The notes under the pieces: generated by a model
Told to the model about the DNA's origin: nothing
The model's input: the letters and a program-made list of their open reading frames with translations, nothing else
Database searches by the model: none
Program-made: the position numbers and the translations under genes
NCBI GenBank assembly: GCA_017625935.1
Contig: JAGALA010000015.1
Coordinates: 7,696 to 71,695 of the forward strand
Direction of reading: 5' to 3'
From: Clostridia bacterium
GTDB taxonomy: Bacteria > Bacillota > Clostridia > Oscillospirales > CAG-272
Length of the DNA: 64,000 nt
Part shown: one piece after another, positions 28,159-46,128 of the stretch
How the letters are laid out: each line of letters begins with the position of its first letter
Numbering within the stretch: position 1 is the first letter of the stretch

Positions 28159-31100
28159 TTAATTTTCAGTCCTTCCACAAACGCACTCGCCGTTTTCGTA
28201 TGTATGTGTGTGTCCCCATACAACGGGGCAGTTTGAATAGTTCCACTGGTCTGACCAGTTGCTTGGTTGTTCCTCTGCTTCACAGTAAATTGTAAGTGAC
28301 GAACATTTTGAGAATGCGCTGGTGTTTATTTTTGTAACACTACTAGGAATTATTATTTTTTCAAGCGAGAAACATCCACTAAATGCAAAATCTCCAATAG
28401 TCGTTACATTTTTGCCAAGAGTTATGCTTGTTAAAGAACTACAGTTTCTAAATGAATATCCCCTTATTTCTTTCACGCTATCGCCGATAATTACGTTTGT
28501 TAACGAAGAGCAATTTTCAAAAGCCCATTCATAAATAGTTGTTATTCCGTTTCCAACAGTTACAGTAGTTAATTTATTGTAATTTTGCAAACGTGAATCA
28601 AGGATATAGTCTTTATTTTTTGTATTAGCACTTATATTAAGAATGCTTAGATGATATGATGAAAAATGTCCAATTGCATTTACTGGAACAGATGCTTCCT
28701 TGATTGGAGAATTATAGAATGCTTGGGACCCGATGCTGGATATATTATTTCCAATCGTTATATTTGTCAGAGAAGCACAGTATGAAAATGCATTTGAGCC
28801 GATATTAGTAACACTGTCTGGAATTGTAACATTTGTCAAACTTTCGCAATAATAAAATGCAGAATTGTCAATAGTTGTTATGCTTGTGGGGAATACTATG
28901 CTTTTTAACCTTCTGCATTTTTCGAATGCAGAAGGTCCAATAGCTGTTACGTTATCCCCTATTGTTACATTTGATAAAGCAGTGCAATCTTTAAATGCGT
29001 TTGTTTCTATAGTTGTTATGCTGTTAGGAATTTTTACATTTATAAGCGAATCGTTGCCGGAAAATGCTTCCGCTGATATAATCGTTACAGGAAAACCGTT
29101 GACAGAAGAAGGTATTATTAAGTCATTATCATTACAGCTACCGATACCTTTTACTGCTAAGGTTGCAGCATCGCTATTTAATGCGTATTCTAAACCTTCA
29201 CTTATGTATAAGTAGCCACAATTTATACACTCTTTTTCTTCGTTATATTGATGTCCAAGTGCGGAAATAACCTTTTGTTCAACTAAGAATTCACCGCAGA
29301 CGATACATCTTTTGCCTTCGGCAAGACCGGCTTTGGTGCACGTTGGTGCAACAGATGCTAGAATCTCTTCTGTGTGGCAAGCTAACACTTCGCACGGTTC
29401 GAGCAAAATTTCTTCGCAAACGGTACATTTAATTCCCATAGTGCAACCATTTTCGGTACAAGTTGGCTTAATTTCGGGAATTATTTCCATATTGTGTCCG
29501 AGTGCGTCAATGAATTGTTGCGCTACTAAAATTTCACCGCAAGTGAAACATTTTTTGCCTTCAGCAAGACCCGATGCAGTACACGTTGGTGCAACAGCAA
29601 CTATTGTTTCTTCGGTGTGTCCAAGCGCATTTACAGTTTCTTGCTTTGCCAAAATATCGCCACAAACAGAGCATTTTTTGCCTGCTGTGAGTCCTGATTC
29701 GGTACAGGTTGGAGCAACCGCAGAAATCGTTTCTTCGGTGTGCCCAAGAGCAACTACAGTTTCTTGTGCCGATAAAATCTCTCCACAAATAGAGCATTTC
29801 TTGCCTTCTGAAAGACCTGTTTCGGTACAGGTTGGGGCTATTGCAGGGATAATTTCTTCGCTGTGACCAAGTGCGTCTATCTCACCCGGTTCAAGTAAAG
29901 TTTCTTCGCAAACAGTGCAGCTGATTCCGTAAGAAAAACCGCCTTCTGTGCAAGTTGGAAGCTTTTCGGGGAGTGCTGACAAGGTATGTCCGAGTGCGTC
30001 AATGAATTGTTGTGCTACTAAAATCTCACCGCAGGCGGAGCATTTCTTGCCTTCGGAAAGACCAGATGTAGTGCAAGTGGGTACAATTGCTTCGATTTTC
30101 TGTTCGGTATGACCGAGAGCGTCGACTGTTTCTTGCTTTGCCAAAATATCGCCACAAACAGAGCATTTTTTGCCTGCTGTGAGTCCTGATTCGGTACAGG
30201 TTGGAGCAACCGCAGAAATCGTTTCTTCGGTGTGCCCAAGAGCAGCTAAAGTTTCTTGTGCCGATAAAATCTCTCCACAAATAGAGCATTTCTTGCCTTC
30301 TGAAAGACCTGATTCGGTACAGGTTGGCGCTATTGCTGGAATAATCTCTTCGCTGTGACCAAGTGCGTCTATCTCACCCGGTTCAAGTAAAGTTTCTTCG
30401 CAAACAGTGCAGCTGATTCCGTAAGAAAAACCGCCTTCTGTGCAAGTTGGAAGCTTTTCGGGGAGTGCAGACAAGGTATGTCCGAGCGCGTCGATGAATT
30501 GTTGCGCTACTAAAATTTCACCGCAGGCGGAACATTTCTTGCCTTCGGAAAGACCTGATGTAGTACACGTTGGTGCAACTGCAACGATTATTTCTTCGGC
30601 GTGTCCGAGCGCATTTACGGTTTCTTGCTTTTCCAAAATTTCGTCACAAATGAAGCATTTTTTGCCTTCTGTGAGACCTGACGATGTGCAGGTTGGAGCA
30701 ATTGCTTCAATTTTTTCTTCCGTATGACCGAGTTCGGCAACGGACTCTTGTGCCGTTAAAATCCCTCCACAAACAGAGCATTTCTTGCCTTCTGTGAGAC
30801 CTGTTTTGGTACAAGTTGGTAATATTGCTGGAATAATCTCTTCGCTGTGACCAAGTGCGCCTATCTCACCCGGTTCAAGTAAAGTTTCTTCGCAAACGAC
30901 ACATTTAATTCCCATAGTATAACCGTTTTCGGTACAGGTTGGCTTGACTTCGGAAATAATTTCCATATCGTGACCTAACGCATCAACAAACTCCTGTTCC
31001 GTTAATATTTCATTACACTCAGAGCACTTTTTGCCTTCGGTAAGACCTGATTTGGTGCACGTCGGTGCAGTCGCTGGAATTATTTCCTCGGTGTGAGTGT

Positions 31101-41935: not shown

Positions 41936-41960
41936 GTAGGGGAGACATTCTCCCTCCCGC
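41936..41960 (+). repeat. GTAG-type REP-like palindrome
   Basis: GTAGGGGAGACATTCTCCCTCCCGC. Similar copies at 44400 and 54408. Confidence 0.45.
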
Positions 41961-41993: not shown

Positions 41994-43172
41994 TTAAAAA
42001 ATCCAAAGCCACAAGAGGTTGAAAATGAGCAGAATGAATAAAAAGCCGAAGTTGAAGGCGCTGAATTTGAGAATGTACTTGATTGCTCCTTTTGGGTTGT
42101 GGCTGATATACTCGCGCAGGGTGATAAGACTTGCAAGGGATGAAATGAGCGTGCCGACACCGCCGATGTTGACGCCGATAAGCAGCTCTCGGTAGTTACT
42201 TGCAAACTGCGAGAGCAAAATTGCGCTTGGCACGTTACTGATAATCTGGCAGGAAAGGGTAGAGAAAATGAGCGTGTCTTTCTCCAAAAGGAAGCCGAAA
42301 AAGTCCTTTACCGCATCTATCCTTGCCATATTTCCCGCAAAAATGAAGAAGAAAACGAAGGTGAGGAGCAACAGGTAGTCAACCTTGGCAAGCGCGCGTC
42401 TGTCCATGAAAATCAGCACAAGCGGAATTAAAATAAGTCCGACAATGTAAGGAATTCCACGGAAAACGATGAGAATTGAAACCAAAAAAAGCACAAGATA
42501 AATCGCTGTACGGACAGGCGGTAGCTTAACCTCCTCGTTTTGAATTTCGAGCACCTCGCCCTTGACAAAAATCAAGCAGCACACGGTGATAAGCAAAACG
42601 GAGAGGATAAACGACGGGAGCATAATTCCCATAAATTCAAGCGTTGGAATTTTGAAAAACGAGTAGAGGTACAAATTTTGCGGATTTCCAAACGGTGTGA
42701 GCATACCGCCAAGGTTTGCCGCGATATTTTGCATAATGAATGTAAACGGCATATATTTTTCCTTGCCCGTTGAGTGCAGAACAAAGAAGCCGAGCGGCAA
42801 AAACGTGAGCAGTGCCATATCGTTGGCAATAAGCATTGAGCCTAAAAACGTGATGTAAATGAGTGCCAAAACCGAAACACGTGCGGTTTTGAAAACGGAA
42901 ACTATTTTCCTTGCGATTATATAGAAAAACTTGATGTTCTTAAGCGCGCAAACAACCGCCAAGACGGTAAAGAGGCAGGAAAGCGTCTTAAAATCAAAAT
43001 AGGAAAGGTATTCTTTGTCGGGCGGGACGATAAAGCAGGTGATAGATGCTAAGATAAGCGCGATAACCATAACGACGTTGCGCTTGATAAAATTAAACGT
43101 GCGAAGACGAATTTGCACCAAAAGCTCCTTAAACGAGGCGTGGCGCACTCTTTTTTCGTTAACTTCCTTCAT
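41994..43172 (-). CDS. ArsB/NhaD/CitMHS-type (IT superfamily) permease
   Basis: Many TM helices, ANDMALL, AANLGGMLTPFGNPQN, ISNVP, GVNIGG...SLAS. Confidence 0.85.
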   Translation of the reverse strand: MKEVNEKRVRHASFKELLVQIRLRTFNFIKRNVVMVIALILASITCFIVPPDKEYLSYFDFKTLSCLFTVLAVVCALKNIKFFYIIARKIVSVFKTARVSVLALIYITFLGSMLIANDMALLTFLPLGFFVLHSTGKEKYMPFTFIMQNIAANLGGMLTPFGNPQNLYLYSFFKIPTLEFMGIMLPSFILSVLLITVCCLIFVKGEVLEIQNEEVKLPPVRTAIYLVLFLVSILIVFRGIPYIVGLILIPLVLIFMDRRALAKVDYLLLLTFVFFFIFAGNMARIDAVKDFFGFLLEKDTLIFSTLSCQIISNVPSAILLSQFASNYRELLIGVNIGGVGTLISSLASLITLREYISHNPKGAIKYILKFSAFNFGFLFILLIFNLLWLWIF

Positions 43173-43203
43173 TCTTTTCCCCCTCAAAATAAAATCCTTA
43201 TGC

Positions 43204-43268
43204 AGTATAATATTTTATTCTATATTTGTCAAGTAGCACTTGCCAAAAAAATCAAAATAATATATAAT
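43204..43268. promoter_or_regulatory. Divergent SigA-type promoters
   Basis: Minus TTGACA-17-TATACT (43232-43204). Plus TTGCCA-17-TATAAT (43240-43268). Confidence 0.7.
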
Positions 43269-43303
43269 GAGTTTAAGAAAGAATTTTTTTAGCGGAGAGA
43301 GAA

Positions 43304-44194
43304 ATGAAGAAGATATTTATTGTCGGCAGCTTAAACTACGACCTTGTAATAAACGCGCCGTATATGCCCGTCGGCGGTGAAACAATAAAGGGTAGCGATT
43401 TTATGACAAATGCGGGTGGCAAGGGCGCAAACCAAGCGTACGCATCAGCTAAGCTCGGCGGTACAGTTTATATGTGCGGCGCGGTGGGAAACGACTCCTT
43501 CGGGGAAGCGTTGCTTGATAGCTTATGTAGCGTTGGCGTAAACACCGATTATATTAAAAAAGTGGAAAAAACATCCACAGGTGTGGCTGTAATTGTGGTG
43601 ACGGAGGGCGAAAACCGCATTATTATCGATAGCGGAGCAAACGCACTTATAACAAAGGACGATATAGACAAATTCCTTGAAAACGCAAGCGAGGGCGACG
43701 TTTTCTTGACCCAGCTTGAAAGCCCTATTGACGTTGTTGGCTACGCGCTATCTCTTGCAAAGAAAAAGGGACTTTTGGTGATGCTAAACCCTGCGCCCGC
43801 AAACGTGGAAATTAAAAAATATTTACCCTGTGTCGATATTATCACGCCAAATGAAACCGAGCTTGAAATTTTGGGCGGAGTGGATGCGCTCCTTGAATGC
43901 GGTATAAGCACGGTTATTACAACACTTGGCGCGCGCGGCTACGAGATTGCAACAAAGGAAGGCGCGAAAATCTACCCCTGCATTAAGGTGAAAGCAGTTG
44001 ATACCACTGCCGCAGGCGATACCGCATCGGGTGGCCTTGCCGTAAAGCTTGCAAGCGGTGAAACAGTTGAGGAAGCAATGAAATTCGGCTCGCTCTGCGC
44101 GTCCATTGCCTGCACCAAGCGCGGCGCACAAATGTCCGTGCCGTCGCTCAATGAATTGAGCGAATACACCTGCGGTGATTCCATGCAAGCATAG
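43304..44194 (+). CDS. rbsK: Ribokinase
   Basis: VGSLNYD, GGKGANQA, LNPAPA, PNETE, VDTTAAGD. Confidence 0.92.
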   Translation: MKKIFIVGSLNYDLVINAPYMPVGGETIKGSDFMTNAGGKGANQAYASAKLGGTVYMCGAVGNDSFGEALLDSLCSVGVNTDYIKKVEKTSTGVAVIVVTEGENRIIIDSGANALITKDDIDKFLENASEGDVFLTQLESPIDVVGYALSLAKKKGLLVMLNPAPANVEIKKYLPCVDIITPNETELEILGGVDALLECGISTVITTLGARGYEIATKEGAKIYPCIKVKAVDTTAAGDTASGGLAVKLASGETVEEAMKFGSLCASIACTKRGAQMSVPSLNELSEYTCGDSMQA

Positions 44195-44362
44195 TTTGAT
44201 TCCATACAATGCGTTGCATTGATTCCATACCGCCTTTGGCGGATTCCATACAACCTGCGGTTGATAATATACACATCTGCGATGTGATGATATGCACGCA
44301 AAAATGCGTGATTCCATACAATGCGTTGCATTGATTCCATACAACCTGCGGTTGATAATATA
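44167..44362. repeat. Array of 8-nt linkers alternating with variable mini-hairpins
   Basis: Nine hairpins with 4-6 bp stems and 3-4 nt loops, separated by ATTCCATA, ATTCCATG, ATAATATA or ATGATATG. Confidence 0.85.
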
Positions 44363-44399
44363 GCACCCTGTGTCGATTTTAGACACAGGGTGCTGTTTT
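44363..44399 (+). terminator. Terminator hairpin
   Basis: GCACCCTGTGTC-GATTTTA-GACACAGGGTGC followed by TGTTTT. Confidence 0.75.
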
Positions 44400-44424
44400 G
44401 TAGGGGAGGGGCTTGCTCCTCCCG
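44400..44424 (+). repeat. GTAG-type REP-like palindrome
   Basis: GTAGGGGAGGGG-CTTG-CTCCTCCCG. Confidence 0.55.
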
Positions 44425-44430
44425 TCTTTG

Positions 44431-46128
44431 TTATTTGTTCAATTTCTCCATCGTTGTGCGCACGCGCTCGCTGTTTACCTTTAGCACGCGGCGGTCGTAG
44501 GTTAAAAAGCCGTTTGTTTCGTCCTCAACGTCGGAGAGCTGGGTGTAGATTGCACCGCACAAGCCGTTTTTCACGTTTGGGATAACCTCATTTTCATATA
44601 GATCAATCAGCGCGTTTTCAAACTCATCTTGGTTTTCAAATTTTTTGTAGCCGTATGTCTTTTGTAGGTTGGCGGAATGCTCCTTGATTTTGTAGGAATA
44701 ACCGCCAAATTCCGAAAGAATTATAGGCTTTTCTCCCTTCGCCCCCTTGAGCTTGACAGCCTTGAAATAAACGTGCAGACTGTTTACGTCGCTTTCGTTT
44801 TTCCTAAACCAGCCCGAGGTTGTATCAATTATGCGCGTGGAGTCAAGCTCACGCATAAGGCGGTACATTTTGTCAGCCTCAAATTGCCCCCAGCCCTCGT
44901 TAAAAATAGTGTAATAAACGACACAGGGGTGGCTATAAAGCTGAGAAACGGTGCGCTTCATCCCCTCGTAAAACGCATCACGCTCGCGTGGTGTGCGCTT
45001 CTTTTCACGCAGGTTTTTGATGCCTATTGTGGGCAGGGCAGTATCGCGGAAAAATGAGTATTTTCCGTTGTTTACCATATCCTGAAAAACAATCATTCCA
45101 AGCTTGTCGCATTGGTAGTAAAATTCCTCGGGCTCAACCTTTATATGCTTTCTTAATGTGTTGAAGCCGAGGGACTTCATAGCTAAAATATCGCGCGCAT
45201 ACTCATTTGGCGAGGCGGGAGTGTAAATTCCGTCGCTGAAATAGCCTTGGTCAAGCACGCCGTTAAAGAAATATACCTTTCCGTTTAGTAAAATGCGCGG
45301 AATACCGTCGATTTTTTTAATTTCAACTGTGCGAAGCGCAAAATACGAGTCTATTTTGTCCTCACCGCTTCTTGCCGTGAAGTAATATAGGTGTGGACTT
45401 TCGGGCGACCAAAGGGTGGGTGAGTCGATTTTTATTTCGCATTTGCCGTTTTCGATAGTGTATATTTTGTCACCCTCGGGTAAGTGGAGCTCAACCTCAC
45501 CGCCTTCAATTCCGTCAAAGAAAATACGGCAAAAGTCCGACCCTGTGTCGATTTTAAGCGATTTTATATACTCGCTCGGCACGCTTTCCAGCCACACGCT
45601 CTGCCAAATTCCCGAAATGGGAGTGTACCACATTCCGCCGCGCGCAAGGCGCTGCTTACCGTATGGGTAAATATGCGAGCTTAAATCGTCAACCACCTCT
45701 AAGCACAGCTCGTTTTCTTTCTTTAGCTTATCGGTAATATCAAACGAAAACGCATCGTAGCCGCCTGCGTGCGTACCGAGAAGTGTGCCGTTTAAGTAAA
45801 TAGCCGCGACGCCGTCGATAGCACCGAAATGCAAGATAACGCGCTCCTTGATAAAGCCGTCATTAAGCGAAAAGCGCTTTTTATAGACAAGGGGTGCGCC
45901 GTTTTTATAGACACGGCATACGCCGGATAGGAGGGACTCGGGTGCAAACGGCACGTTTATCTTGCCTGAAAAGTCCTCACATTCAAAGTCCCATTCGCCG
46001 TTTAACGAGAAAAACGAATATCTTACGAGCATTTTTCTTGGGTAATAGCTGTCGTATTCTCTTGCGGGATTGCCGCTATTTAGAAGCGCCTCGCCCTCTT
46101 TAGTTGTAAGATGCTTGATTTCTGTCAT
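44431..46128 (-). CDS. GH2 glycoside hydrolase
   Basis: SLNGEWDF, SGIWQSVWLE, GFNTLRKHIK, FNEGWGQ (acid/base), LSEFGG (nucleophile). Confidence 0.88.
   Translation of the reverse strand: MTEIKHLTTKEGEALLNSGNPAREYDSYYPRKMLVRYSFFSLNGEWDFECEDFSGKINVPFAPESLLSGVCRVYKNGAPLVYKKRFSLNDGFIKERVILHFGAIDGVAAIYLNGTLLGTHAGGYDAFSFDITDKLKKENELCLEVVDDLSSHIYPYGKQRLARGGMWYTPISGIWQSVWLESVPSEYIKSLKIDTGSDFCRIFFDGIEGGEVELHLPEGDKIYTIENGKCEIKIDSPTLWSPESPHLYYFTARSGEDKIDSYFALRTVEIKKIDGIPRILLNGKVYFFNGVLDQGYFSDGIYTPASPNEYARDILAMKSLGFNTLRKHIKVEPEEFYYQCDKLGMIVFQDMVNNGKYSFFRDTALPTIGIKNLREKKRTPRERDAFYEGMKRTVSQLYSHPCVVYYTIFNEGWGQFEADKMYRLMRELDSTRIIDTTSGWFRKNESDVNSLHVYFKAVKLKGAKGEKPIILSEFGGYSYKIKEHSANLQKTYGYKKFENQDEFENALIDLYENEVIPNVKNGLCGAIYTQLSDVEDETNGFLTYDRRVLKVNSERVRTTMEKLNK

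Follow-up and report, generated by a model that had tools for sequence, protein, structure and literature searches.

A Gut-1-like hairpin-and-linker array at the end of a ribokinase gene in a Clostridia bacterium

Introduction

The ribokinase gene rbsK of a Clostridia bacterium (Oscillospirales, CAG-272; GenBank assembly GCA_017625935.1) runs at its 3' end into an array of nine small hairpins joined by short, nearly constant linkers. The array lies in a 64,000-nucleotide stretch of contig JAGALA010000015.1 (positions 7,696 to 71,695, forward strand), hereafter the window, to which coordinates without a contig or locus label refer. What kind of element is this array, and does it serve the gene whose last codons it supplies? 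An initial annotation, made from the letters of the window alone, had proposed an undescribed repeat element, such as a single-stranded DNA (ssDNA) hairpin substrate for an HUH enzyme, a multivalent protein-binding RNA or a processed small-RNA array. The reading we favour, at a probability of roughly 0.55, is a solo, gene-less copy of a DNA-level repeat that resembles repetitive extragenic palindromes (REPs) and bacterial interspersed mosaic elements (BIMEs). It would be a linker variant of the Rfam motif Gut-1, remodelled by recombination between linkers and passively transcribed with rbsK. No locus-specific job for rbsK is apparent, and the array is a repeat insertion, not an rbsK-specific regulator.

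Results

Architecture of the array

Direct reading of positions 44167-44362 bore out the nine mini-hairpins and 8-nt linkers that had been annotated there (Table 1). The stems have 4-6 bp, the loops 3-4 nt and the units 11-16 nt; all nine hairpins close with a C-G pair, as annotated. Their description as perfect holds for every unit but the second, in which the arms CAAGC and GTTTG leave one G-T pair. Of the linkers, one after each hairpin, five read ATTCCATA, two ATAATATA, one ATTCCATG and one ATGATATG. The pattern GATTCCATAC, with at most one mismatch, has six matches in 44177-44342, compared to 2.38 expected over the entire 64-kb window, and its window total of nine was reached by none of 100 shuffles. 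The linker motif occurs in the window on the plus strand only, within 44177-44342. Folding z-scores of the array against shuffles are -5.15 and -4.29 for RNA, and -4.73 and -4.83 for DNA. Because the units differ, Tandem Repeats Finder sees part of the array only and reports 44248-44297 (period 23, score 58).

Two units occur twice, which had been taken as recurrence out of order and as a sign against simple slippage. The recurrence is real, but the two units recur together, as a block at 44311-44362 that equals an upstream block minus its CCGCC unit. The apparent disorder is thus explained by segmental duplication or deletion between identical linkers, and the objection to slippage is not supported.

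The array also provides the end of the gene, as had been annotated. It begins right after the conserved Tyr codon of rbsK (44164-66), so that the last nine codons (44167-44194, T-C-G-D-S-M-Q-A-stop), namely eight residues and the stop, are array sequence. The stop codon TAG at 44192-94 sits within the loop and 3' arm of unit 2. In relatives, RbsK stops 1-4 codons past the same Tyr.

Table 1. Coordinates of the array, its parts and the flanking features in the window.
Feature	Position	Strand	Description
Hairpin-and-linker array	44167..44362	+	9 C-G-closed mini-hairpins, 9 eight-nt linkers; direct reading
Unit 1	44167-77	+	CACC-TGC-GGTG
Unit 2	44186-98	+	CAAGC-ATA-GTTTG; one G-T pair
Unit 3	44207-21	+	CAATGC-GTT-GCATTG
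Unit 4	44230-42	+	CCGCC-TTT-GGCGG
Unit 5	44251-63	+	CAACC-TGC-GGTTG
Unit 6	44272-86	+	CACATC-TGC-GATGTG
Unit 7	44295-310	+	CACGCA-AAAA-TGCGTG
Unit 8	44319-33	+	CAATGC-GTT-GCATTG
Unit 9	44342-54	+	CAACC-TGC-GGTTG
Block 1	44199..44271	+	Linker, CAATGC unit, linker, CCGCC unit, linker, CAACC unit, ATAATATA; direct reading
Block 2	44311..44362	+	Block 1 minus the CCGCC unit; direct reading
rbsK (ribokinase)	43304..44194	+	Open reading frame; TIGR02152, 306.4 bits (cut-off 299.65), residues 4-286 of 296
Hairpin, likely terminator	44363..44399	.	12 bp, GCACCCTGTGTC / GACACAGGGTGC, 7-nt loop, then TGTTTT; direct reading
REP-like element	44400..44423	+	GTAG, then hairpin GGGAGG-GGCTTGCT-CCTCCC; hairpin in terminator consensus scan
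GH2 beta-galactosidase/glucuronidase-like gene	44431..46128	-	Open reading frame, convergent; weak NCBIfam matches, stop at 44431

A dispersed repeat family in the genome

The array belongs to a family with many copies in the host genome (2.08 Mb in 61 contigs, 43.5% G+C). An unbiased search for chains of at least four perfect hairpins found 48 chains at 8-nt spacing, compared to 2-10 at the control spacings of 2-4 and 13-14 nt. The linkers of these chains fall into three classes, type A (ATTCCATA), type B (ATGATATA/G) and type C (CATGAATTG). A parser for A and B linkers gave 37 arrays of at least two units, one of which, an AT-rich false positive at C27:3429, was removed from all later counts, leaving 36. 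More occur in relatives, so the initial annotation passes one of its own tests for refutation, namely a lack of any other array. In this parse the window array is one nine-unit chain, the terminator hairpin being counted as the final “unit”. Since the window array mixes both types, and ATGACATA and ATGCCATA occur elsewhere, types A and B make up one family. The stems come from a small vocabulary that is shared among arrays (CAACC, CACGC(A), CACAC/CACAT, CAATGC, CAACGC and CCGC), and the loops are more variable. The variable part is therefore not free, and one order of five hairpins is found again at many loci of the genome.

The arrays are extragenic, dispersed and mostly at gene 3' ends, as REPs and BIMEs are. 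Among 35 arrays with gene context, 20 lie in gaps between tandem genes, 12 between convergent and 3 between divergent genes, and those between tandem genes comprise 9 in sense and 11 in antisense, so that no orientation rule emerges from these crude, open reading frame (ORF)-based gene calls. Nor do the arrays show a replication-strand bias (18/31 by skew, 20/31 by gene bias).

Relation to Gut-1 and other known repeats

The closest described relative is Gut-1 (RF01706), which the account in Weinberg et al. (2010; PMC2864571) presents as a probable non-coding RNA found only in human gut sequence, and whose Rfam consensus has three hairpins joined by GUGAAAU. Both the window array and Gut-1 combine varied small hairpins with one constant short linker, come from uncultured gut bacteria, and share a loop polarity relative to the linker, with T-rich loops of the TTC or TTGC type on the linker-sense strand. 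They differ in that the linker here is the 8-nt ATTCCATA or ATGATATA, the hairpins always close with C-G and the units number nine. The classification differs too: Weinberg et al. list Gut-1 as a non-coding RNA, and our counts point to DNA-type palindromes. The linkers GTGAAAT, GTGATAT, ATGATATA, ATGACATA, ATGCCATA and ATTCCATA are all present in this genome. Four other loci of the genome exceed the gathering threshold of the RF01706 model (50 bits) at 55.7-76.8 bits, and two ATGATATA-type arrays score 25.1 bits (C61:30358) and 24.3 bits (C5:8821). The model has no match in 43000-45500 of the window at E values up to 10, and none at the ATTCCATA-type loci L149-L151 at E values up to 1; other Rfam searches at permissive thresholds returned chance-level matches only. 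The window array thus has the Gut-1 architecture and lies outside formal Gut-1 membership in both score and linker. Judged by its letters, the family varies that architecture in its linker (G-ATKMYATR-C, 8 nt, between C-G-closed hairpins), so “undescribed” was too strong a term, although the model misses this variant. In titles and abstracts of the literature, nothing on such arrays was found beyond Weinberg et al., whose supplements may say more.

Compared to the REPs and BIMEs of Escherichia coli, such as REP325 as portrayed by Qian et al. (2015; PMC4550694), the arrays share the position mostly at gene 3' ends, a probable passive transcription, the potential for cruciforms and the many dispersed copies. 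The REP units, however, are ~35 nt long, imperfect, tagged by GTAG and alternating in orientation, whereas the array units measure 11-16 nt, are perfect and carry no tag; all of them point the same way, and the linker has a fixed length of 8 nt. None of the mini-hairpins carries GTAG or CGTC at its end; the tag is found only on the neighbouring element at 44400-44423. Other familiar classes were compared as well. The constant part measures 8-12 nt and the variable part is an 11-16-nt palindrome from a shared vocabulary, as opposed to the ~23-50-nt repeats and unique spacers of clustered regularly interspaced short palindromic repeats (CRISPR; cas genes were not searched for). Each unit is followed by a linker and not by the T-run of an intrinsic terminator. 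With regard to miniature inverted-repeat transposable elements (MITEs), the arrays open with ATR ahead of their first hairpin, close with G-ATT(T/A) and have no terminal inverted repeats.

Stems and loops

Are the hairpins maintained as such, and on which nucleic acid? We examined 70 distinct 15-nt units that had been picked only by their linkers and outer C...G. Their stem cells are paired in 96.2% of cases, compared to 65.0% after shuffling (reached by 0/500 shuffles) and 22-43% after sliding. Double-sided changes number 130 against 33.4 expected, and G-U appears in 1/420 cells. This strong covariation agrees with the annotated view that stems stay paired while they vary. Single stem defects are split between G:T and A:C at 17:12 in relatives and 6:8 in this genome, with no wobble bias toward an RNA strand. 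The scarcity of G-U, the lack of wobble bias and the lack of an orientation rule are together unlike an orientation-specific RNA helix.

The loops are polar. In 37/70, 15/31 and 17/34 units of three sets, the linker-sense strand reads C-TNC-G or C-TNNC-G, and the complement is found in 2, 0 and 0, respectively. It follows that the opposite strand carries C-GNA-G or C-GNNA-G, the “mini-hairpin DNA” motif; in the window, C-GCA-G occurs in units 1, 5, 6 and 9 on the strand opposite rbsK. Roughly one unit in two thus resembles the mini-hairpin DNA GCGNAGC or GCGNNAGC as outlined in PMC13037366. That motif, as given there, was defined on synthetic oligonucleotides, whereas the genomic units are known here as sequence only.

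Two further candidates were set aside. A CsrA sponge, suggested by GGA in the antisense linker TATGGAAT, was rejected because the ATGATATA and ATAATATA linkers have no GGA, and iteron-like double-stranded binding sites are unlikely as the period varies between 19 and 24 bp.

History of the rbsK site

Comparison of the gap between rbsK and the terminator among relatives, which had been suggested as a check for empty sites, showed an array in three species and an empty site in a fourth. Arrays of 9, 10 and 4 units stand in the window, L001 and L002, respectively, each followed by the same terminator hairpin; L005 has only the stop and terminator, with the same downstream gene as the window. RbsK of the window is 85% identical to those of L001 and L002 and 79% to that of L005. 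Linkers at this site are mostly ATTCCATA in the window and B-type in L001 and L002 (mostly ATGATATA and GTGATATA). Unit 2 of the window resembles unit 1 of L001, and both encode M-Q-A. The site therefore looks like one old insertion with a fast turnover of units and linkers. The join between rbsK and the array is at ...ATAC, a sequence that looks like the end of a linker, and the filled and empty sites are too divergent in alignment to reveal a duplication.

Proposed origin and points against it

On the reading that we prefer, the array would have entered the junction of rbsK stop and terminator in an ancestor of the genus and overwritten the last codons, joining at an ATAC that imitates a linker end. 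Units may later have come and gone through recombination or slippage between identical linkers, and linkers may have been swapped with dozens of other genomic copies. The Watson-Crick palindromes were likely kept by hairpin-templated correction, by selection for a hairpin or cruciform, or by both, and the stems would not be maintained for an RNA need in one orientation. It is probable that the array is passively transcribed within the rbsK 3' untranslated region (UTR) ahead of the terminator, where a stable stack of hairpins might at most slow 3' exonucleases.

Several observations weigh against this reading. Pairing is nearly perfect and many changes are compensated, which calls for selection or else a dedicated mechanism, and the polar loops amount to a strand-specific constraint not expected of a neutral palindrome. 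No target-site duplication, strain-level polymorphism or direct sign of mobility was found; the metagenome pattern searches gave no alleles, as the 28-nt rbsK-end pattern had no match in metagenome contigs, and a conserved 23-mer of the downstream gene had five, none of them syntenic and none with an array. The RNA data, being contigs of 90-95% relatives, leave room for RNA-level roles, and the orientation count depends on crude gene calls. Finally, 23S_rRNA_IVP genes (PF05635; hereafter IVP) co-occur with arrays, being present in 31/37 array-positive compared to 51/114 array-negative genomes and in all eight array-rich ones, which hints at a trans partner and hence a function.

Distribution among relatives

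A linker-pattern search across related genomes, as had been proposed, was positive. The two-linker A pattern gave at least 119 stretches in public genomes, almost all in metagenome-assembled genomes of animal-gut Clostridia. A degenerate A/B pattern matched in 37/151 genomes of the bacterial family to which the host belongs, compared to one match for the reversed control; it detects one linker class only, and the related genomes are not independent. Matches are very patchy: this genome has 69, seven others have 65, 27, 27, 23, 17, 11 and 10, and the remainder have few or none; these eight genomes, with at least 10 matches each, are termed array-rich. Hundreds of uncultured gut Clostridia carry arrays that gene callers and Rfam miss. 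Such arrays rewrite gene ends, as with the last eight residues and stop of the ribokinase, and break assemblies. As a natural example of palindromes that are variable yet perfectly paired, the family is a clean one. Of 62 loci in viral contigs, only eight have a real hairpin between linkers, the others being coding or satellite repeats of no relation, and phage carriage is thus not indicated as a general rule.

One locus of a relative, G058:C1:1-362, holds a long, near-homogeneous satellite at a contig end, in which the linkers ATGATATG and ATTACATA take turns over at least 16 units of CACGC-NNNN-GCGTG; as far as this sequence tells, the family can expand into true tandem satellites.

Many relatives possess a two-armed mirror form, with TATGGAAT-type linkers in the left arm and ATTCCATA linkers in the right arm, which continues as an ORF of ~117 residues or as a conserved non-coding tail. 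The copy in this genome (C13:1184-1457) has no gene and is predicted to form a branched rod through pairing of its complementary linkers. The window array has neither a mirror arm nor an adjacent PF05635 gene, and no IVP gene lies in the window.

Around the C13 copy (C13:1100-1460; L149, L229), a SpoVG-like gene (C13:700-1104) is followed by a ~65-nt tail, a terminator, the two-armed ATTCCATA array and the tail again. The tail includes a tRNA T-loop-like GGTTCAAATCC stretch, and direct repeats of 43 and 33 nt stand 273 nt apart. Read from its layout, the tail-array-tail arrangement looks like a duplication or insertion footprint. Despite the GGTTCAAATCC stretch, tRNA and Rfam searches found nothing at the two-armed element.

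A possible partner in IVP proteins

The liveliest alternative, which we nevertheless consider unlikely, is that arrays serve as multivalent RNA or ssDNA platforms for the four-helix-bundle, Avd-like IVP protein, with solo arrays acting as trans sites or sponges. The two-armed element would then be the cis partner of the IVP gene, and in relatives the ATTCCATA-type form stands directly upstream of a ribosome-binding site (RBS) and the ~117-residue ORF. Behind one such element, the ORF L087:13-363 matches PF05635 at 2.7e-18; look-alike ORFs in L050 and L083, and an IVP-like ORF adjoining the ATGATATA-type two-armed array of L154, were recognised by likeness (in the latter, of the N-terminus) without a profile scan. 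IVP genes also occupy the corresponding places of L157 and L159. The co-occurrence given above and the predicted pairing of left and right linkers into a branched rod would suit this alternative as well. However, six array-positive genomes have no IVP match, and the association is drawn from non-independent genomes in a family where IVP genes are common anyway (82/151). None of the 36 A/B arrays of this genome has a four-helix-bundle gene within 1 kb. The three IVP genes of the genome (C60:8821, C25:67896 and C27:12) are only 39-42% identical to the IVP of L087, which is linked to ATTCCATA arrays. Arrays with other linkers flank the genes on C60 and C25, a point in favour.

Specifically, both complete IVP genes (C60:8500-9120 and C25:67770-68470) carry arrays with linkers of their own, AATGAAG and ATGAATT, and the one on C60 comes after a tRNA-like stretch and a terminator.

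A bolder version, which we regard as more doubtful still, makes the arrays the cis ends of an unrecognised small genetic element whose sole protein is the IVP. The protein would bind linker-hairpin junctions on the C-GNA-G single strand, and solo arrays would be its MITE-like offspring. If true, an orphan Rfam motif and an orphan Pfam family would each acquire a function, and a way for DNA to spread without a classical transposase would be added. In either version, the genome-level tie to IVP proteins names a testable partner.

Association with REP elements and RAYT-like genes

Could the arrays instead be BIME-like modules spread by a REP-associated tyrosine transposase (RAYT, an HUH enzyme), the mini-hairpins being auxiliary ssDNA structures or passengers of GTAG REPs? 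The genome contains 146 elements of GTAGGG plus hairpin, 44400-44423 among them. It also contains three RAYT-like genes (NF047646 at 77, 62.7 and 72.2 bits, cut-off 80), of which C36:17459-17974 has three direct REPs and an inverted one at its flanks, a REPtron layout (C36:17100-18300, L146). A REP lies within 60 nt of 20/36 arrays, whereas 0.9% of the genome is that close to one; all 20 REPs are downstream, 18 are on the same strand and 13 are at exactly 9 nt. The window array has a REP-like element of 6-bp stem on the same strand, 37 nt downstream. These features recall the GTAG REPs, REPINs and RAYTs surveyed by Di Nocera et al. (2013; PMC3733652), in the GTAG tag, the 6-bp stem, the RAYT-like genes with REP flanks, and the arrays that stand head-to-tail with REPs. 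The main text of that survey lists Proteobacteria, Cyanobacteria, Chloroflexi and the Planctomycetes-Verrucomicrobia-Chlamydiae (PVC) group and contains neither Firmicutes nor Clostridi-; the array-REP fusions show a REP/RAYT system in gut Clostridia, a phylum unnamed in that text.

On contigs C22 (5400-6000), C31 (17500-18400), C37 (380-900) and C61 (30100-30500), REP, connector, array of 4-5 hairpins and REP form tandem mosaics. The connector is conserved and ~40 nt long (...GGTACGCACCCAACAATGCGGGAGGAAATATG), with an RBS-like GGGAGG and an ATG at its end, and the frames differ between copies. A coding reading, in which the ATG opens a frame through the ATTCCATA-type array to the TAG of GTAG (C31), was rejected, since the frame is lost in the copy that follows and TGA occurs in ATGATATA-type linkers.

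As an explanation of the arrays at large, spread by a RAYT is improbable, even though the mosaics and the mini-hairpin-DNA loop motif on one strand are in keeping with it. The mini-hairpins themselves bear no GTAG, 16/36 arrays have no REP nearby, and in the window a terminator stands between the array and the REP. REPs, like the arrays, show no replication-strand bias (77 and 82 of 146). RAYT genes are present in 20/37 array-positive, 41/114 array-negative and only 3/8 array-rich genomes. Profile searches found none in the two same-genus genomes (97% complete, with 23 and 17 array matches), nor in G058 (65 matches), G072 (27) and G048 (10). Of the annotated ssDNA substrate for an HUH enzyme, the ssDNA part has some support, from the strict Watson-Crick stems, the mini-hairpin-DNA loops, the nearby REP and the RAYT-like genes. 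The dependence on HUH is not supported, since both same-genus genomes have arrays and no RAYT match. A role for RAYT in this genome is possible and is not general.

A possible RNA-level role

Two RNA runs held part of the stretch, and one metatranscriptome contig spans 43903-44227, from rbsK into the first units. Least probable of all is selection of the array as a cis-acting RNA element that serves rbsK expression (by stabilising the 3' UTR, by helping the terminator or as a processed small-RNA array): its position on the rbsK strand between stop and terminator, the excess of arrays at gene 3' ends and that contig, a weak clue as it comes from a relative and may reflect DNA carry-over, would fit, but the arrays show no orientation preference toward flanking genes, G-U pairs are almost absent, the orthologous arrays vary in unit number, order and linker, with none in one relative, no unit has a U-run, and the sole terminator-like site inside the array is weak and on the minus strand (44286-44272).

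Neighbouring features

Downstream of the array, the hairpin at 44363-44399 likely serves rbsK and the convergent GH2-like gene as a common intrinsic terminator, a role read from its sequence; the terminator consensus scan does not list it, and in L001 and L002 it is likewise conserved after the array. The best NCBIfam match of the GH2-like gene is NF052611 (1.3e-28), far below cut-off. Elsewhere in the window, a further GTAG REP-type element lies at 41936-41960, and Tandem Repeats Finder reports a 492-bp tandem repeat of 2.9 copies at 29495-30897, with an inner period of 123 bp.

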